Assembly: GCA_045656645.1 (NCBI GenBank)
Contig: JAZORN010000103.1
Location: forward strand, 18,319-82,318
Source of the DNA: Clostridia bacterium
Lineage (GTDB): Bacteria; Bacillota; Clostridia; UMGS1883
DNA length: 64,000 nucleotides
Reading direction: 5' to 3'
A model generated the notes under the pieces. That model was given only the letters and a program-made list of their open reading frames with translations, searched no databases and was not told where the DNA came from. Positions 8,902 through 59,599 of the stretch are shown here, one piece after another. The translations under genes were made by a program, and so were the position numbers. Position 1 is the first letter of the stretch. Each line of letters opens with the position of its first letter.

Positions 8902-9954
8902 TCAATCAAAGCTGGGTTTCTGCAAAAAGCTTGGGATTTCCAAATCGCCGTTTGCATCAGAGCCTATTGCACCGAAAAAGTCATTTTTGTCCTTTTTCTT
9001 TCCGTCAAGACCTGTTGCAATAACAGTGATGATAACATCATCCTCAAGACTTTCGTCAATAGCCGCACCGAAGATAACATTTGCATCCTCATCAACACAA
9101 TCACCGATAAGCTGTGCAGCCGCATTTGTTTCGTGAAGGTTGAGGTTTGCGCCACCGATAACGTTGATAAGAACACCGGTTGCACCGTCGATAGTAGTTT
9201 CGAGAAGTGCACTTTCGATAGCCATTCTTGCAGCTTCCTCTGCACGGTTTTCACCGCTTGCACGACCGATACCCATATGTGCAAGACCTGCATCCTTCAT
9301 AACTGTTGTAACGTCAGCAAAGTCAACATTGATAAGACCTGCGCCAACGATAAGGTCGGATATACCCTGAACGCCCTGACGAAGAACCTCGTCAGCATCC
9401 TTGAATGCGTCAATAAGACTTGTTTTATTGCTGCTGATATCAAGAAGTCTGTCATTGGGAATTACAACGAGTGTATCAACATTTCCCTTAAGCTGCTCGA
9501 TACCTTCTTCAGCCTGAATCATACGTCTTCTGCCCTCAAAACCGAAAGGCTTTGTAACGATAGATACTGTAAGAACGCCAAGCTCCTTAGCAATGCTTGC
9601 AACAACGGGTGCCGCACCGGTACCTGTGCCGCCGCCCATACCTGCAGTTACGAATACCATATCTGCATCCTTGAGCACCTGCTCAATCTCGCCACGGCTT
9701 TCCTCAGCGGCTTTTTTACCGATTTCAGCCTTGCCGCCTGCGCCCTGACCCTTTGTCAGCTTGTCCCCTATCTGGATTTTCTGACTTGCCTGGCTCTTTG
9801 TAAGTGCCTGCTTATCTGTATTTACAGCGATAAATTCAACGCCCTTAATTCCTGCTTCAACCATTCTGTTTACAGCATTGTTTCCGCCGCCGCCTACGCC
9901 GACAACCTTAATCTTCTGAGCTGCGCCCAGTTCATCTGCATATTCCATTCTCAT
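8902..9954 (-). CDS. ftsZ: Cell division GTPase FtsZ.
   Basis: Contains [13 protein letters not shown] and the tubulin signature [11 protein letters not shown]. Confidence 0.97.
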
Positions 9955-10850: not shown

Positions 10851-12098
10851 CTATACTCTTACTATATCTGCACCTAACGAAGTGAGCATATCCTCCAGCT
10901 TAACATACCCTCTGTCGATATATTCTATTCCTTCAAGACGGCTTTCTCCCTGCGCACCAAGCGCCGCCACTGTAAGTGCCGCACCGCCACGAAGGTCCAT
11001 AGCACGTATTCTGGCACCGTAAAGACTATTTCCTTTAATAATTGCAACCCTTGCATCCTGCAAAATATCTGCGCCCATTTTTTTAAGCTCGGGAATTATT
11101 TTATACCTGCTGTCAAATATATTTTCCACAATAACGCTTGTTCCCTCGCTGTAACAAAGTGCCGCCATTATGACCGACTGCGCATCTGTCGGAAAGCCCG
11201 GGTAAACCTGCGTTTTTATCATATCAGCAGGAAGAGCCTTTTTTGGGGCACGTATATACATTTTATCCTTGAAAAACTCTATTTTTGCACCGCTCTCCCG
11301 AAGAACAGACACAACGGCACCCAGATGTTCTTTTCTTACATTTAAAAGCTCAATTTCACTTTTTGTTGTCATTGCCGCACACATTAATGTCGATGCAACA
11401 ATTCTGTCGGGGATTATTTTATGCTCTGCCCCACGCAATGATGCCTTACCTTTTATTCTTATAAATTCAGTTCCTGCACCGCTTATATCTGCGCCCATTT
11501 TGTTAAGAAAGTCGCACATATCAACAATCTCAGGCTCTTTTGCCGCATTGGAAATTGTCGTTTCTCCTTTAAGGCGTACACTGGCAAGAATAATGTTTTC
11601 CGTTGCGCCAACACTCGGGAAACTCAGGTGAATATCAGCAGGGTGCATTCTCTCGCACGATGCCTCAATAAACCCGTTTTCCTCACGAATTTCTATACCA
11701 AGCTCCCGAAGTGCCTTGAGGTGTAAATCAATCGGGCGGTTTCCAAGCTCGCACCCGCCGGGACTGCAAAGGCGTGCCTTCCCCAGTTTTCCGCATAATG
11801 CCCCTAAAAATATAATGGAACTGCGCATTTCACGCATCAAATCTTCGGGAATTTCCCACCTGTCTGCAGATAGAGCATCTATTTTTAAAACGTCATTTTC
11901 AAGGCTCACACTGCAGCCTATGGTTTCAAGTATTTTTACCGTGTGTATTACATCGCTTAAAAGCGGACTGTCATATATACGGCACACATCACCAGAAAGC
12001 AACGCTGCCGCCATTATGGGAAGCACCGCATTTTTTGCCCCGTGCACCCGCACTCTGCCGTCAAGCCGTCTGCCGCCGTTTATTATGTATCCGTTCAA
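10851..12098 (-). CDS. murA: UDP-N-acetylglucosamine 1-carboxyvinyltransferase MurA.
   Basis: Contains RVHGAKNAVLPIMAAALL and later …CELGNRPIDLHL…. The likely start is TTG at 12098 (RBS GGGGGTG); the track ORF extends to 12113. Confidence 0.92.
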   Translation of the reverse strand: MNGYIINGGRRLDGRVRVHGAKNAVLPIMAAALLSGDVCRIYDSPLLSDVIHTVKILETIGCSVSLENDVLKIDALSADRWEIPEDLMREMRSSIIFLGALCGKLGKARLCSPGGCELGNRPIDLHLKALRELGIEIREENGFIEASCERMHPADIHLSFPSVGATENIILASVRLKGETTISNAAKEPEIVDMCDFLNKMGADISGAGTEFIRIKGKASLRGAEHKIIPDRIVASTLMCAAMTTKSEIELLNVRKEHLGAVVSVLRESGAKIEFFKDKMYIRAPKKALPADMIKTQVYPGFPTDAQSVIMAALCYSEGTSVIVENIFDSRYKIIPELKKMGADILQDARVAIIKGNSLYGARIRAMDLRGGAALTVAALGAQGESRLEGIEYIDRGYVKLEDMLTSLGADIVRV

Positions 12099-12183
12099 AT
12101 ACCACACCCCCAAGAAATCATAGCGGGGCGAAATCTTCCGCCCGATATCATATTATGCCATTGGGGGTATAAGGGTGAATAGA

Positions 12184-12461
12184 TAACCGAAACGAAGTAA
12201 TCCGTGTTCTGTTTTTTGCTTTCTGTTTTCCGCCATTACTGCGTTGAAAGCCTTGCATATACGTCAGTATATGCTGTATGTTTGCCTTGTACTGACGAAA
12301 AACAGTGTGCAAAAAATTCTGCGAACCCAAAATGCCTCAAAATTGAGATTTTTCAAGGCGGCAGGGCGAAGGAATACTGTTTCGTATTTCGAGACCGACA
12401 ACGAAGAAAAAGCCGATTTTCAGTCATTTTGGGCAGAACAGGGATTACTTCGTTTCGGTTA
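12184..12461. repeat. Family-A structured intergenic repeat, copy A1 (278 bp, perfect 20-bp terminal inverted repeats).
   Basis: TAACCGAAACGAAGTAATCC (12184-12203) is the inverted repeat of GGATTACTTCGTTTCGGTTA (12442-12461). About 90% identical to 20937-21213. Confidence 0.85.
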
Positions 12462-13557
12462 ATGTTTCACGTATGCAGTTATAAATTGTCTCGCACGCAT
12501 CTGTGATACCAATTTTTTTGCTGCACTGTTGCATTTCTTTAAGCTTATCAGTGTTTTTAAGCACTGTTCCTATTTCTTCTGCAAGCCTCTGTCCCGAAAG
12601 CTCGCTTTCAAGGACTACCTTAGCCGCACCGTTTTTTTCAAGATAACGCGCATTATATTCCTGATGATTATGCGCCACATAAGGACTTGGGATAAGAACT
12701 GCCGCCTTACCGAGTGCCGTTATCTCACTTACTGTAATTGCGCCTGCCCTACCTACTATCATATCGCAAACGCCAAAAACCTCCTCCATATTATATATAT
12801 ACGGAAGAATTTTTACATTTTTCTGCTTTTCTATGTTTACGCCTTCCTTTGAAAGCGTTTGAGAAACTTCCTCGTAATGTCTCTCACCTGTTGCCGCAAT
12901 AAGATTAAATCCATCAATGCGTCCGTTTTTCACCATATCAATAAGGGCAGCATTCATTTTTTCTGCACCAAGCGAACCGCCGAACATCAGGACAATCGGC
13001 TTTTCATCAAAATTACAGCTTGCACGAAGAACATCCCTGTCGTGCGGAGTAAAAAGGTCAGGTCTTAACGGATTTCCCGTGAGCACCATTTTCTTTGCCT
13101 TCATCATATTACGTGTTTCGTCAAAGCTGATTGCCGTTATATCTGCTTTTTGAGAAAGCATTTTTATCGCAAGTCCGGGAAAAACATTCTGTTCGTGAAT
13201 AAGTGTCGGGATTTTGAGTGATGCGGCAGAGTTTACCACCGGAGCGCATACATATCCTCCCGTGCCGATTACAACGTCAGGTTTAAACTCTTTTATAATA
13301 CGGCGTGACTCCCGTATGCTCTTTATATAGTTTATGAAAACCTTTATATTCTGGGGGCTTAAACTTCTTTTAAGTCCCATAACCTCTATAAACTTAATAT
13401 CATATCCGCATTTGGGGACAAGCTTTTTTTCAAGACCGTGCTGTGTTCCCACAAAGAGAAACTCGCTGTCCTTTTCTTTTTCCCTGATATAATTTGCTAT
13501 TGCAATAGCAGGATTTATATGCCCTGCCGTACCGCCGCCCGTGAGTAGTACACGCAT
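12445..13557 (-). CDS. murG: Undecaprenyldiphospho-muramoylpentapeptide beta-N-acetylglucosaminyltransferase MurG.
   Basis: Starts MRVLLTGGGTAGHINPA at ATG 13557 (RBS AAGGGG); the track ORF begins 22 codons earlier. The last 5 codons and the stop lie inside the right terminus of repeat A1. Confidence 0.93.
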   Translation of the reverse strand: MRVLLTGGGTAGHINPAIAIANYIREKEKDSEFLFVGTQHGLEKKLVPKCGYDIKFIEVMGLKRSLSPQNIKVFINYIKSIRESRRIIKEFKPDVVIGTGGYVCAPVVNSAASLKIPTLIHEQNVFPGLAIKMLSQKADITAISFDETRNMMKAKKMVLTGNPLRPDLFTPHDRDVLRASCNFDEKPIVLMFGGSLGAEKMNAALIDMVKNGRIDGFNLIAATGERHYEEVSQTLSKEGVNIEKQKNVKILPYIYNMEEVFGVCDMIVGRAGAITVSEITALGKAAVLIPSPYVAHNHQEYNARYLEKNGAAKVVLESELSGQRLAEEIGTVLKNTDKLKEMQQCSKKIGITDACETIYNCIRETLTETK

Positions 13558-13573
13558 ATCTTTTCTGCCCCTT

Positions 13574-14695
13574 TTACAATTTTTTGACCGAGCTTGTTCT
13601 GGAAATATTAAGCAGTATTCCAACGCCCGAAAGCATTACTATCATTGATGTTCCGCCTGCGCTGAAAAACGGAAGTTGCATTCCCGTTGAGGGAAGTATC
13701 GACAGAACAACACCGATATTTATAAGCATCTGTATACCTATTATTGACGTTATTCCAAAAGCCATATATGTACCGAAACGGTCCTTTGCATTAAGTGCAA
13801 TACTCATTCCTCTCCATACGAAAAGAACGAAAAGCCCTATTACTAGAAGTCCGCCTATAAATCCAAGCTCCTCACATACAACCGCATATATGTAGTCATT
13901 ATGTGCCTCGGGCAAATATCTGTATTTCTGCCTTGACTGGCCAAGGCCAAGACCGAAAAGCCCGCCCGAGCCTACTGCATAGAGCGACTGAATTATCTGC
14001 CAGCCTATACCCCTTTCATATGCAAACGGGTCAATAAGCGCACGAAAACGGTCAAGTCGGTAGCTTGCCGAAAATGCAATTCCTATAAAGCCCAGTACTC
14101 CAAGACCACCGAGGGCATAAAGGTATTTCATCGGAAGCCCTGCCGCAACCATCATCATTACACTGATAACGGCAAGAACAACTGCCGCAGAAAGATGACT
14201 CTGCAGCACGCATGCCGCACCAAAAAGTGCCAGTATCATTGCAGATATTCCTAAGTTTTTCATATCGTTTGTAAGGTCAGATGTCCTTTTATCAGAAAAT
14301 CTTGACGCATAGTATATTACAAGAGCAAACTTTGCAACCTCTGAGGGCTGAAAGCTTATCGGGCCGAGGGAAATCTGCCTTGTCGCACCGTGTGATGCAA
14401 AACCGATTACAGGAACTATGTACATAAGGAAAAGTGTTCCCGTAACAATAAGCTTTGACAGCTTCTTATATATATGATAATCGTAATTTGACGTAATAAA
14501 CATTAAAAAACAGCCTATTGCACTGAGGGACCCCTGCTTTAAAATAATAGAATATACATTTCCTTCCTCTAATGCTTTGGGTGAACTTGCTGAAAAGAGC
14601 ATAATCAGACCAAACAAAAGAAGAAATATTATTATCATAAGCATTACAAAGTCTACCTGACCTGACCTTGAAATTCTTTTGCCTGTGTCCTTCAT
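13574..14695 (-). CDS. ftsW: SEDS-family peptidoglycan glycosyltransferase FtsW/SpoVE.
   Basis: Polytopic protein with the motif …QPSE(V)AKF…. The likely start is MKDTGKR at 14695 (RBS GGAAGGG); the track ORF extends into the repeat leader. Confidence 0.9.
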   Translation of the reverse strand: MKDTGKRISRSGQVDFVMLMIIIFLLLFGLIMLFSASSPKALEEGNVYSIILKQGSLSAIGCFLMFITSNYDYHIYKKLSKLIVTGTLFLMYIVPVIGFASHGATRQISLGPISFQPSEVAKFALVIYYASRFSDKRTSDLTNDMKNLGISAMILALFGAACVLQSHLSAAVVLAVISVMMMVAAGLPMKYLYALGGLGVLGFIGIAFSASYRLDRFRALIDPFAYERGIGWQIIQSLYAVGSGGLFGLGLGQSRQKYRYLPEAHNDYIYAVVCEELGFIGGLLVIGLFVLFVWRGMSIALNAKDRFGTYMAFGITSIIGIQMLINIGVVLSILPSTGMQLPFFSAGGTSMIVMLSGVGILLNISRTSSVKKL

Positions 14696-14823
14696 TCTTA
14701 TAACCCTTCCTTTCACTATGTTCAAAGTATAAACCAGTAAAATAAATTCAAAATGCAAAGCATTTTGCTCCATACCTCTTCACTTTTCGCTCTTACCTCT
14801 TACCTGCCTGATTTTATTCAGGC
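14696..14823 (-). repeat. Family-D conserved leader, copy D1 (about 128 nt ending at the ftsW start codon).
   Basis: It can be aligned along its full length with 33333-33461. The distal 47 nt are identical, and the RBS-proximal TTGAACryArTGAAAGGAAkGGTTATA is shared. Confidence 0.7.
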
Positions 14824-14833
14824 TTGCTCCTCC

Positions 14834-19996: not shown

Positions 19997-20920
19997 TCAG
20001 ATAATTTTTTCTATAGTGCGCAGCTTACTGCTTCTTGCACGTGGGTTTTCATCAATTTCTTTATCAGTGGGGATAAGCGGTTTGCGGCTTACCGTTTTTA
20101 CAGTGGGTCTGTTTCCGCATACGCACATTGGAAAATCCTTCGGGCATGTGCATCCCTTTTCGAGCGATGCAAAAGTTGTCTTAACAATTCTGTCCTCAAG
20201 GCTGTGAAAGGTTATTATTCCCATTCTTCCACCCTTTTTCAGTAGCTCCACACTGTCCCTTATGGTACTCTCGAGGATTTTCAGTTCCCCGTTAACCTCT
20301 ATCCTTATTGCCTGAAATGTCCTTTTCGCAGGATGAGGTCCGTCTTTCCTTGCTGAAAGCGGTATTGCCGCCTTTATTATGTCTACAAGCTGAAACGTCG
20401 TTTCAATACTTGCCTTTTCTCTTTCTTCTATAATGAAGTTTACAATTCTGCTTGCCCAGCGTTCCTCGCCGTAGGTGGATATCACCCTGAAAAGCTCTTC
20501 GGATGAATATGTATTTACAACCTCACGTGCTGTAAGATTCTCGCGTCGGTCCATTCGCATATCAAGCGGTGCATCCTGCATATAGGAAAATCCACGCTCT
20601 GCATCATCAAGTTGCGGAGAGGATACTCCCAAATCAGCAATTATTCCGTCAAACTTTTCTATATCAAATGACTTTGCAATTTCCTTTATATCAGAGAAAT
20701 TACTGTGAACTGCCGTGAAATTCTTCCCTTTAAATCTTTCACGTGCATTTTCTATAGCGATAATATCGCGGTCAACACCTACTACACTTCCGCCTTTTTC
20801 AAGTATCAGCGCAGTGTGTCCGCCTCCGCCCAGTGTAAGGTCGGCGTATATGCCGCCTTTTTTAACATTTATGCTTTCAACCGTTTCGTTTAGCAGTACC
20901 GTAGTATGGTTAAATTCCAC
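19997..20920 (-). CDS. rsmH: 16S rRNA (cytosine1402-N4)-methyltransferase RsmH.
   Basis: Starts (M)EFNHTTVLLNE and contains DLTLGGGGH. GTG start at 20920, RBS GGAGGAG (20926-20932). Confidence 0.95.
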   Translation of the reverse strand: MEFNHTTVLLNETVESINVKKGGIYADLTLGGGGHTALILEKGGSVVGVDRDIIAIENARERFKGKNFTAVHSNFSDIKEIAKSFDIEKFDGIIADLGVSSPQLDDAERGFSYMQDAPLDMRMDRRENLTAREVVNTYSSEELFRVISTYGEERWASRIVNFIIEEREKASIETTFQLVDIIKAAIPLSARKDGPHPAKRTFQAIRIEVNGELKILESTIRDSVELLKKGGRMGIITFHSLEDRIVKTTFASLEKGCTCPKDFPMCVCGNRPTVKTVSRKPLIPTDKEIDENPRARSSKLRTIEKII

Positions 20921-20936
20921 TCTGACTCCTCCATTT

Positions 20937-21213
20937 TAACCGAAACGAAGTAATCCGGACTCTGTTTTTTGCTTTCTGTTTTCCGCCATTACTGCGTTAA
21001 AAGCCTTGCATATACGACAGTATATGCTGCATTTTTGCCTTGTACTGACGAAAAACCGTTTGCAAAAAATTCCTTGAACCCAAAATGTCTCAAAATTGAG
21101 ATTTTTCAAGGCGGCAGGGCGAAGGAATACTGTTTCGTATTTCAAGACCGACAACGAAGAAAAAGCCGATTTTCAGCCATTTTGGGCAGGTTCGGATCAC
21201 TTCGTTTCGGTTA
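20937..21213. repeat. Family-A structured intergenic repeat, copy A2.
   Basis: Same termini (TAACCGAAACGAAGTAATCC … GATCACTTCGTTTCGGTTA) and same interior as A1. It ends 4 nt from the rsmH Shine-Dalgarno sequence. Confidence 0.85.
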
Positions 21214-21488
21214 AGCACACGGGAATCGAACTCCGTATGGTTTTAAAATAGAAATTTTGCATAATACTGCAGAAAATTCTGCAAATATACGTCAGTATTA
21301 TTCTTGAATTTTCTTTGTCTTATATCAAAAGTTCTTATTTTAAAACTCTTCGACCTTAAACGCAGAGAAATTTAGCGCAATTTTGATGCGAAGGACGAAG
21401 ATAGGCTGACGCCTTTCGAGGACGACAAATTGAAAGTGTGCAAATTTATCAAGTTTAAGGCATACGGGGTTCGACTCCCGTGTGCTTA
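21214..21488. repeat. Family-C structured intergenic repeat (275 bp, ~27-bp inverted termini).
   Basis: AAGCACACGGGAATCGAACTCCGTATG (left terminus) is the near-inverted repeat of CATACGGGGTTCGACTCCCGTGTGCTT (right terminus). It abuts the mraZ stop codon (21489-21491) on one side and copy A2 on the other. Confidence 0.8.
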
Positions 21489-21923
21489 TCAGAAGCTGAT
21501 TTCCTCAAGACTTTCGGCAGCTTCTTCAACGGTCATTTCTTCCTCACTCTGAATATATTCCTGCCAACGCTGTGCATCCCAGATTTCCACACGTTTGCTG
21601 ACACCGATTATTACAACCTCTTTAGTCAGCATTGCGTGTTCACGGTGAGGGGCTGTTATAAGCACCTTACCCTGTTTATCAGGCTCCGCCTCTGCCGCAC
21701 CTGAAAGAAACATACGCTGCAAGTGACGTGCACTCTTCTGGTTTGAAGGAAGCTTCGAAAGATTTTCTGCAAGCTCCTCCCATGCATCCATAGGATATAC
21801 AAACAAGCACCCTTCAAAGCCCTTGGTGATCACAAACTGCTCGCCGAGCTGCTCACGAAACTTTGCAGGGATAATTACTCTGCCTTTAGCGTCAATATTA
21901 TGTGAGTACTCGCCAACGAACAT
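21489..21923 (-). CDS. mraZ: Transcriptional regulator MraZ.
   Basis: Starts MFVGEYSHNIDAKGRVIIPAKFR, with a second SpoVT/AbrB-like half. Confidence 0.95.
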   Translation of the reverse strand: MFVGEYSHNIDAKGRVIIPAKFREQLGEQFVITKGFEGCLFVYPMDAWEELAENLSKLPSNQKSARHLQRMFLSGAAEAEPDKQGKVLITAPHREHAMLTKEVVIIGVSKRVEIWDAQRWQEYIQSEEEMTVEEAAESLEEISF

Positions 21924-22242: not shown

Positions 22243-22300
22243 GATGCCGCAGGCAGTCTGCGACAACTTTTTAAGTAACTTCAACTAAATAATGACTATT
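22243..22300 (+). repeat. 58-nt direct repeat, copy 1 (leader duplicated upstream of tRNA-Pro).
   Basis: Matches 22561-22618 at 52 of 58 positions. It starts with GATGCCGCAGG, the same 11-mer found in the variable loop and T-stem of the tRNA-Pro gene. Confidence 0.85.
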
Positions 22301-22560
22301 TCGCCCGAAAAGATAACAGCGTAAGCGAAATCTTTTCGGAGAGGAAGAATAAACGGTTGCGTGCAGAGTTCTGCGTTAGCATAACGACGCAAAGCCTACC
22401 TTTATTCTGACGACGTAGCGACGCCTGCTTTGGGCAACACATCTGAGCGCATCCTGCGGATGATACAGCGAGGATTTGTTGGGGCAGCGGTCGACAGATG
22501 GCAAGGCAATTTATTGCCGAAGATAGATGTCGGGCACCGCAACGTGGCGGCATAGCCGAG
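22301..22560 (+). ncRNA. Unassigned, highly structured 260-nt segment co-oriented with tRNA-Pro and carrying tRNA-Pro-derived fragments. Candidate ncRNA, or a degenerate insertion-bearing tRNA copy.
   Basis: It lies between the predicted promoter and the tRNA. Several clean helices are visible: CCGAAAAGAT/ATCTTTTCGG; AGAATAAA/TTTATTCT enclosing a three-way junction TTGCGT[GCAG…CTGC][GTTA…TAAC]ACGCAA; and GGCAA/TTGCC. Positions 22415-22434 match tRNA positions ~19-37 at 19 of 20. Confidence 0.35.
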
Positions 22561-22618
22561 GATGCCGCAGGCAGTCTGCGACAATTGTTTAAAAGACTTT
22601 AACTAAATAATGACTATT
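22561..22618 (+). repeat. 58-nt direct repeat, copy 2, immediately 5' of tRNA-Pro.
   Basis: See copy 1. Confidence 0.85.
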
Positions 22619-22619
22619 A

Positions 22620-22695
22620 CGGGGTGTAGCGCAGCTGGTAGCGCGCCTGCTTTGGGAGCAGGATGCCGCAGGTTCAAGTCCTGTCACTCCGACCA
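22620..22695 (+). tRNA. tRNA-Pro (anticodon UGG), CCA encoded.
   Basis: Manual cloverleaf: acceptor CGGGGTG/CACTCCG, D-stem GCGC/GCGC, anticodon stem CCTGC/GCAGG with loop TTTGGGA, T-arm GCAGG-TTCAAGT-CCTGT, 3' ACCA. Confidence 0.95.
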
Positions 22696-33332: not shown

Positions 33333-33461
33333 AAATATAACCATTCCTTTCATTGCGTTCAAGGCAAAAACAGTATACTATAAATTCAAAATGCAAAGCA
33401 TTTTGCTCCATACCTCTTCACTTTTCTCTTTTACCTCTTCCCTGTCTGAATTTATTCAGAC
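33333..33461 (-). repeat. Family-D conserved leader, copy D2.
   Basis: See 14696-14823. The distal hairpin GTCTGA…TCAGAC differs from GCCTGA…TCAGGC in D1 by a compensatory base-pair change. Confidence 0.7.
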
Positions 33462-33499
33462 TTTTCACCCCACAGATAGTATTGTCCTTTATTTAGTTT

Positions 33500-37334: not shown

Positions 37335-37588
37335 GGGGATAGGAAAAAATGCTTCAGAACGGACAAACTGAGCCAACAAAGCCCATATATGGGCTTTGTT
37401 GGGTTACCCGAAGGCGTACGTGGGTACGTCAAGAGGCGAAGTTTGTTCGTAGCAAAAAGGCTTATAAACTAAGAAAAATCGAATGAAATAAGATTTTTCA
37501 ACCAAATTCAGATGTTTTACAAACTATAAACCACCTGAATTTCGTATCTTTATCGCCTTTTTGCGGTCTGGACTTTTTTTACATCCCC
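37335..37588 (+). repeat. Family-B structured intergenic repeat, copy B1 (254 bp).
   Basis: Outer inverted termini GGGGATAGGAAAAAA… / …TTTTTTTACATCCCC. Conserved core CAGAACGGACAAACT…AGTTTGTTCGTAGCAAAAAGGC…GCCTTTTTGCGGTCTG, shared with 41652-41881 and, inverted, with 59393-59599. Confidence 0.85.
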
Positions 37589-41651: not shown

Positions 41652-41881
41652 GGGATAGGAAAAAAGGTTCAGAACGGACAAACTAAACCCCGAAGGGGCT
41701 TGCCCGAAGCTGTATGTGTATACAGCGAGAGGTGAAGTTTGTTCGTAGCAAAAAGGCTTAGTACAAAGAAAAACAGAGCGTAGTGAGGTTTTTCAACATT
41801 ACATACATAAAACTGAAAATTTGCACTTTCCTAAAGTTAATATTTCTTGCCTTTTTGCGGTCTGGGCATTTTTAACATCCC
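41652..41881 (+). repeat. Family-B structured intergenic repeat, copy B2 (230 bp), between infB and rbfA.
   Basis: It begins 1 nt from the infB stop codon (41883-41885). It has the same core as B1 but different hairpin sequences. Confidence 0.85.
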
Positions 41882-59392: not shown

Positions 59393-59599
59393 GGGCTGCG
59401 ATAAAATGCACAGACCGCATAAAGCATAGAAAAGTTTATATAAAGGCGCTTAATGAAATAAAGAAGCAAAGTAAATTCAAGGTAAAAATGCATTATGCTA
59501 CGAACAAACTTCGCCTCTCGACGTACCATCGTACGCCTTCGGGTAACCCAAGCTGCGCTTGGCTCAGTTTGTCCGTTCTGCACTATTTTCTCTTCGCCC
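59393..59599 (-). repeat. Family-B structured intergenic repeat, copy B3 (207 bp, inverted orientation).
   Basis: The reverse complement contains CAGAACGGACAAACTGAGCC…CCCGAAGGCGTACGATGGTACGTCGAGAGGCGAAGTTTGTTCGTAGC. Confidence 0.8.

Follow-up and report, generated by a model that had tools for sequence, protein, structure and literature searches.

Two repeat copies in the dcw cluster

The window, i.e. the whole stretch of 64,000 nucleotides analysed in this work, carries on its minus strand a division and cell-wall (dcw) gene cluster in the order mraZ, rsmH, PBP, Mur ligase, mraY, ftsW, murG, murA and ftsQ, as mapped with Pfam, which also confirmed murA at 10851-12113, murG at 12445-13623, rsmH at 19997-20920 and mraZ at 21489-21923. 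Two copies of a repeat had been recognized in this cluster in an earlier note, and both have been confirmed: A1 at 12184-12461 and A2 at 20937-21213 share an identity of about 92-94% (92.4% by blastn, 94% over 253 ungapped nt), and their homology ends precisely at the termini. The terminal 20-mer TAACCGAAACGAAGTAATCC is found without mismatches at 12184-12203 on the plus strand, at 12442-12461 on the minus strand and at 20937-20956 on the plus strand, and with one mismatch at 21194-21213 on the minus strand; shuffled sequences gave no match to it. The inverted termini of 20 bp, described earlier as perfect in both copies, are thus perfect in A1 but not in A2, the right arm of which carries the mismatch.

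A1 proper is a unit of 276 nt (12185-12460, minus strand) that begins with A, ends with T and is flanked by T12184 and A12461. A2 proper has 275 nt and the same A...T form (20938-21212, minus strand). The strand of A1 that folds, referred to here as the sense strand, is the minus strand, hence the strand of the dcw genes. Its minimum-free-energy fold (-105.7 kcal/mol, z = -9.2) is predicted to be closed by a terminal helix, P1, of 20 bp followed by one C.C mismatch and then 7-8 bp (27-28 bp in total). In transcript sense the 5′ arm of P1 corresponds to 12433-12461 and the 3′ arm to 12184-12212 (both minus strand), as indicated by the matching inverted termini and the fold.

A1 was previously placed between murG and murA, but it is not strictly intergenic, as the TAA stop codon of murG (12447-12445) lies 17 nt inside the element, in its terminal repeat and in the 5′ arm of P1. 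The last five codons of murG (LTETK) and its stop codon are therefore derived from the element. Reading of the sequence shows that two of the three frames entering the element reach a stop codon within 20 nt, which limits the damage at gene ends. A putative promoter of murA (TTCACC, 16 nt, TG-CATAAT, matching TGnCATAAT; 12152-12179, minus strand), recognized by its match to the consensus, is located 4 nt downstream of A1 and is conserved in the related genomes G001 and G009, in which the site is empty. The 3′ end of A2 lies 6 nt ahead of the Shine-Dalgarno sequence GGAGGAG of rsmH and 17 nt ahead of its GTG start codon at 20920. This ribosome binding site with the start codon (20920-20932, minus strand) is native to the site, the empty site of G009 having the identical GGAGGAGTC..GTG of rsmH. 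When A2 was folded in its context the element closed on itself, and the Shine-Dalgarno sequence of rsmH was unpaired in the centroid structure.

On its other side A2 abuts, without any spacer, a further element of the same superfamily. This C-type element (275 nt, 21213-21487, minus strand) starts 1 nt past the stop codon of mraZ (21491-21489), has inverted arms of 56 nt, is a full-length match to the covariance model (136.9 bits), and its left arm is homologous to the A′/A″ subfamilies. The order in the window, in transcript sense, is TGA-T-(C-type element)-(A2)-A-AAATGGAGGAG, and this array fits a second element that entered the T^A step where the first one ends. C-type ends also directly adjoin family-A copies at two other places in the host genome, on contigs C72 and C74, and the same arrangement is seen in four of the 20 distant copies. 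The termini of the C-type element, about 30 nt each (AAGCACACGGGAGTCGAACCCCGTATG), look like a tRNA T-arm.

Other repeats are present in the window. Family B repeats were noted at 37399-37470, 41697-41764 and 59480-59551, and this family is probably another branch of the same repeat population; in the host genome about 28 loci of B-type repeats were found by blastn and about 37 loci of C-type repeats. A direct repeat of 84 nt (93% identical; 14742-14825 and 33380-33463) covers the start of ftsW, the upstream hairpin and the ribosome binding site, and its second copy probably precedes a paralogous gene of the FtsW/RodA/SpoVE type. Another direct repeat, of 61 nt (89% identical; 22243-22303 and 22561-22621), lies upstream of mraZ, and its second copy ends at a tRNA gene (22620-22692).

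Spread of the family and empty sites

The earlier note proposed that the copies be counted by BLASTN and that empty sites be sought, and both many further copies and empty orthologous sites have been found. The host genome is a MAG of 2.14 Mb in 109 contigs, 85% complete, in which BLAST and a profile HMM detected 11 close full-length copies (79-100% identity), about ten divergent full-length copies of 274-278 nt, and fragments. These copies form three subfamilies, one of which is a mosaic of the other two. By blastn 32 of 61 relatives match the family. A covariance model, R1, was built from an alignment of 48 copies (21 of the host, 27 of congeners). Among 399 Clostridia genomes sampled, at least 98, belonging to 54 of 216 genera, contain full-length matches to it of 270-278 nt; this count is a lower bound, with four candidates scored per genome. 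The hosts found by pattern scan, all of them MAGs, are assigned to Clostridia, Acutalibacteraceae, Oscillospiraceae, Ruminococcus, Eubacterium and Ructibacterium, and come from ruminant, horse and human guts. A search of Rfam with A1, A2, the C-type element and 14 diverse copies gave no match at E <= 1, plasmid and phage collections contained no match to the family, and the literature search on the element family returned general reviews of bacterial repeats only. The exact-protein look-up of RsmH and MurA, used to find contigs of the same species, matched no record. This superfamily of elements of uncultured gut Clostridia is apparently undescribed.

The sites of A1 and A2 are both empty in all 20 congeners checked, among them G001, G009 and G023, and the flanks are collinear. 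The gap between mraZ and rsmH is 20-90 bp in all 20, and that between murG and murA is 50-90 bp in 19 of them, the exception being G004 with about 650 bp. When the joined flanks of 18 other host copies were searched for, at least 12 copies were absent at the orthologous sites of G001 and/or G009, and one was shared with G001. Absence of copies at orthologous sites of sister species indicates that the family has moved since the species split, and, as judged from the sequences compared, the insertions of A1 and A2 are recent. We consider it very probable that A1 and A2 arose by separate, lineage-specific insertion of a mobile element of about 275 nt that neither codes for protein nor moves autonomously and that belongs to a large superfamily of gut Clostridia.

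Insertion into a division and cell-wall operon was at first regarded as unusual. In this clade it is not, as the dcw cluster of a distant congener, G004 (locus L067), also carries two related, C-like elements, at 1690-1965 and 8985-9260 of that locus, one in the murG-murA spacer and the other between an ftsL-like and a PBP gene, where it ends at the ribosome binding site of the PBP gene. Such insertions are thus tolerated repeatedly, and the copies in the window are probably passengers at tolerated positions, with A1 at the 3′ end of murG supplying the stop codon through its built-in TAA.

Members of the family have been observed in various other contexts. At 8899-9173 of contig C57 in the host (G000) a family-A copy lies in a coding sequence, 22 codons into an ORF for a membrane protein that is intact in G001 and G009, and an ORF restarts inside the end of the element. 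One member lies in a 23S-5S rRNA spacer (L040:223-494), one is directly upstream of a tRNA gene (3′ flank of L024/L027), and one is placed beside or within a weak match to the TPP riboswitch (L042:1369-1645). In G000 most contig ends share overlaps of 141 nt and stop inside repeats of 200-300 nt; it is small repeat elements, rather than IS elements, that fragment the host assembly.

Orientation towards neighbouring genes was scorable for 74 of 79 unique sites, and the gene downstream of the 3′ end of the element is co-oriented with it in 49 cases and opposite in 25 (p = 0.007). Of 49 copies classed as co-directional 18 are antisense to their genes, so that orientation is a bias and not a rule. 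GC skew follows gene orientation, and a bias for the replication strand is therefore inseparable from one for the transcribed strand. Copies adjoin a Shine-Dalgarno sequence in 28 of 77 cases versus 13 of 77, a genuine pattern, though one that may simply reflect very short spacers.

A conserved Y-shaped fold and the insertion junctions

The alignment of 48 copies was also used to derive a consensus structure with RNAalifold. It has the shape of a Y, made of the terminal helix P1 (about 24 bp) and two arms, P2 and P3. In this structure 95.8% of the cells are paired, compared with 80.3% in shuffles, double (compensatory) changes occur at 44 of 64 pairs (30.5 +/- 2 in shuffles), and the covariation score is 0.455, against 0.173 for shuffles and 0.07-0.10 for controls with slid partners. 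Covariation, which the earlier note proposed to examine, is strong. As the copies are related, the shuffle controls overstate the significance; the slid controls, together with the count of different pair types, nevertheless make the fold secure.

Pairing of the termini over 20-28 nt was found in every copy. At positions 5-16 P1 takes at least nine unrelated sequences, which are always self-complementary; examples of these middle parts are GCCGAAACGAAG, GCCGAAAGAGAG, GCCATTGAAGGA, GCGTGACAGTAG and AGCAGATGTGTT. The fixed parts of P1 are the outer AGC/GCT and the inner ATCCGAAC/GTTCGGAT. Extension of the helix into the flanks was also examined, and the outermost pair showed a slight excess (0.71 vs 0.62 +/- 0.03), with nothing beyond it.

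The two strands of the element are not equivalent. The covariance model scores A1 with 269 bits on the minus strand and 40.6 bits on the plus strand, and A2 with 298.8 and 62.8 bits, respectively. For 20 copies from other families of Clostridia the scores are 208-266 bits in sense and 57-88 bits in antisense orientation, and for 23 copies overall 208-299 and 41-88 bits, a gap that may partly reflect sequence and not structure, since R1 was trained on sense-strand sequences. In the alignment G.U cells outnumber A.C cells (211 vs 56 in total, 157 vs 21 in the arms, 54 vs 35 in P1), and seven pairs have at least ten G.U cells but none has at least ten A.C cells. A sign test of G.U against A.C per pair was not significant (24 vs 15, p = 0.2), and the asymmetry is thus carried by a small number of positions with strong wobble pairing together with the covariance-model scores. 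The evidence that one particular single strand must fold is good, though not conclusive. The orientation of both A1 and A2 places the folding strand in the operon transcript, which should consequently carry self-contained, Y-shaped RNAs. RNase III acts on transcribed RNA with a near-perfect duplex of at least about two turns; the host has an rnc gene, and cleavage by RNase III of the predicted P1 duplex, once co-transcribed, is plausible. Effects of A1 and A2 on expression would be a by-product and not a conserved regulatory design.

Both copies had been described as flanked by TA; the TA dinucleotides are in fact the outermost bases of the 278-bp unit itself and no target duplication. Among 78 unique sites the inner terminal bases are A in 75 and T in 76, whereas the outer flanking bases are T in 55 and A in 55 (about 70% each), and TA...TA is read at the ends of some 60-70% of the copies. 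If TA were duplicated, decay would affect the four positions alike, so near-invariant inner bases next to variable outer ones argue that no TA is duplicated. Non-TA flanks are seen even in young copies: L129 shares 98.5% identity with L096, yet its flanks are A on one side and C on the other (A...C). In comparison with the empty site of G012 the flanks of L115 are identical at 62 of 62 positions and the unit AGCCAA...TTGGCT stands between T and T, which excludes both a 2-nt duplication and a 1-nt duplication of A. For L147 and L104 the target in the empty relatives is C^A, yet the element has T as its inner 3′ base, which excludes any 2-nt duplication as well as a 1-nt duplication of T. The sole model that fits the three pairs is insertion of an A...T unit between two bases, with a preference for T^A and no duplication; it rests on these three clean filled/empty pairs and on the base-frequency statistics, many of the junctions compared with G001 and G009 being disturbed by small indels or substitutions next to the element.

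The target profile is weakly palindromic, with T 53% and T 70% before the insertion point and A 70% and A 58% after it. Insertions in the loop of a pre-existing hairpin were noted for L129, L096 and L106/L025, with flanks such as GGGCATT...AATGCCC and GCACCGCT...AGCGGTGC, and there are hints of a preference for hairpin loops as targets. The terminal helix itself could be ruled out as a guide in target choice, as copies with identical termini have unrelated flanks.

Origin, possible movement and meaning of the element

The repeat has been tentatively called a MITE, and in part the name holds: it is small (about 275 nt), non-coding, mobile, dispersed (at least 21 copies in the host) and bounded by inverted termini, but no target duplication accompanies it and no matching transposase was found. 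In a search of the host genome and of 862 kb of related loci no pair of family-type termini had the spacing of an IS element; when termini matching at distances of up to 9 kb were considered, they delimited only units of about 275 nt and one deletion derivative of 200 nt, and split covariance or HMM matches represented only insertions of 53-55 nt. No cognate autonomous IS with matching ends was found in the host, in these loci or in the collections of plasmids and phages, the genomes all being MAGs. MAGs often lose multi-copy IS elements, and the missing transposase is for this reason weak evidence. The sole transposase-like multi-copy ORF seen by eye in the host is apparently of the IS256 type; this type generates target duplications of 8-9 bp, which do not fit, and the candidate was rejected.

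Four other explanations of the repeat have been weighed against the insertion of a non-coding mobile element as set out above. In its classical form a MITE would be a deletion derivative of an IS630/Tc1-mariner-type element, moved by a terminus-binding DDE transposase with duplication of TA. Inverted termini of at least 20 nt, small size, many copies and the TA...TA ends of 60-70% of them are what such an origin would give, and ERIC and Correia repeats are likewise flanked by TA (PMC3184786). The invariance of the inner bases next to outer ones at only about 70%, the young copies with non-TA flanks such as L129 and the clean filled/empty pairs without duplication all speak against it. Moreover, the IS630-type domain DDE_3 (PF13358) has no match in the host and was found in one of 39 genomes of the genus, in an IS with unrelated ends, there are no pairs of termini at IS-size spacing, and the terminal repeat is hypervariable even among the copies of a single genome, a variability that a transposase reading the sequence would not tolerate. 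We regard this origin as improbable, and a little more so than movement as single-stranded DNA by a Y1 HUH transposase (RAYT/TnpA) in the manner of REPINs or of IS200/IS605 elements, itself an unlikely explanation. The latter would account for the lack of target duplication, for ends conserved in structure and not in sequence and for the strand-specific fold, and Y1_Tnp (HUH) genes, many of which are RAYT-like with 250-300 aa, were detected in 26 of the 39 genomes of the genus. These RAYT-like genes are, however, flanked by a different REP of their own, ACAGTTTGGGGACG; the family profile HMM (nhmmer) found nothing at their flanks except one C-type copy about 650 nt away, no Y1 gene turned up in either the host genome or G001, and the presence of Y1 is not clearly correlated with that of the element (odds ratio about 1.7). 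IS200/IS605 elements lack inverted termini, have subterminal hairpins and insert 3′ of a strictly conserved motif of 4-5 nt, whereas the repeat described here has long inverted termini and an upstream flank of only T 53%, T 70%. In G023, G027 and G021 (L162-L164) RAYT-like Y1 genes of about 260 aa lie between inverted REPs containing ACAGTTTGGGGACG, and the ACAGTTTGGGGACG REP with the RAYT-like genes looks like a separate REP/RAYT system of the genus.

The two remaining explanations fare worse. A structured RNA dedicated to the dcw cluster, kept for regulation, for example as a stabiliser or as a target of RNase III processing, would agree with the very stable fold (z of about -9), the strong covariation, the sense orientation of both dcw copies, the presence of rnc and the excess of co-oriented sites (49 vs 25, p = 0.007). 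Yet both sites are empty in 20 of 20 congeners, the element occurs in both orientations at about 100 unrelated sites, including a coding sequence, a 23S-5S spacer and tRNA-adjacent positions, 18 of 49 co-directional copies are antisense and no Rfam family corresponds to it, so that the dedicated module suggested earlier is to be considered highly improbable. As to fragments of protein-coding genes or a gene for a small protein, one antisense frame is indeed open over 81-87 codons in nine of 11 close copies, but in divergent copies it is interrupted. None of the frames is open in every copy, no Pfam match falls below E = 0.03 and substitutions track base pairing and not codon positions, in line with the earlier remark that credible coding capacity is lacking; we give a coding origin practically no credence.

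For the mobile element, propagation via a single-stranded folded intermediate of the sense strand may be envisaged. An enzyme acting in trans would cut and join where P1 has its base, at the T^A step, and would read the shape and the short boxes AGC...ATCCGAAC / GTTCGGAT...GCT rather than the sequence of the terminal repeat, with P1 serving as a spacer of fixed length and the junction and boxes being recognised. That the enzyme recognises the folded strand in this manner and cuts across the base of P1 at T^A is put forward as a tentative proposal. With slightly more reserve still, the elements could be seen as a distinct kind of mobile element recognised by shape, in which P1 would be the ruler from the three-way junction to the cut site, and a folded strand of DNA, or possibly of RNA, would be excised and inserted at T^A without duplication by a type of enzyme so far not associated with repeats of this kind. 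Among the favoured targets would be the T^A junctions where resident copies end, and this would account for the arrays in which elements abut.

Several known repeats invite comparison. The RNA of the Correia elements (NEMIS/CREE) of Neisseria is processed by RNase III. Like the element described here, Correia elements are dispersed repeats of small size that lack coding capacity, have long inverted termini and are often placed beside or inside transcription units, with T/A at their ends and a transposase that has not been firmly identified (PMC3184786). They are described as being co-transcribed into hairpin RNA (PMC3184786), the counterpart of which is predicted for the A elements. They differ in having 104-157 bp, confinement to Neisseria, terminal repeats conserved in sequence and a duplicated TA; the A element has about 275 nt, a three-way fold, hypervariable paired termini, no duplication and a distribution across Clostridia. 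ERIC/IRU repeats of Enterobacteriaceae are imperfect palindromes that occur in transcribed intergenic regions in either orientation, with terminal TA, as the A element does, and can affect mRNA stability when transcribed (PMC3184786). ERIC is shorter (about 127 bp), forms a single hairpin without a branched fold of conserved length, and target duplications have been reported for it. RUP of pneumococcus is 107 bp long and its ends match those of IS630-Spn1, its presumed mover. It resembles the A element as a MITE-like repeat of a Firmicute with a stable stem-loop and a location near gene ends (PMC3184786), but for the A element neither an IS630-type partner nor a TA duplication was found. REPINs share with it a hairpin unit kept by compensatory evolution, a presumed single-strand movement and the lack of a classical duplication (PMC3116915); they differ in having about 100 nt, two short REPs, a conserved GTAG-type head and a single-copy RAYT gene which they flank.

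Blocks of 275 nt such as these can readily be taken for riboswitches, small RNAs or regulators specific to an operon, and the covariance model would remove such false leads. In gut Clostridia many gaps between genes are filled by the elements, which also cause breaks in MAG assemblies. A length and fold that are fixed throughout the class, combined with paired ends that are free to vary, no duplication and no known transposase, point to mobilisation by an enzyme that reads structure, and the family offers a natural system for studying the spread of palindromic repeats in bacteria, which for Correia, ERIC and RPE is still an open question. Essential operons tolerate these insertions at the boundaries formed by stop codons and ribosome binding sites, and co-transcription of the elements could alter the processing of the mRNA.
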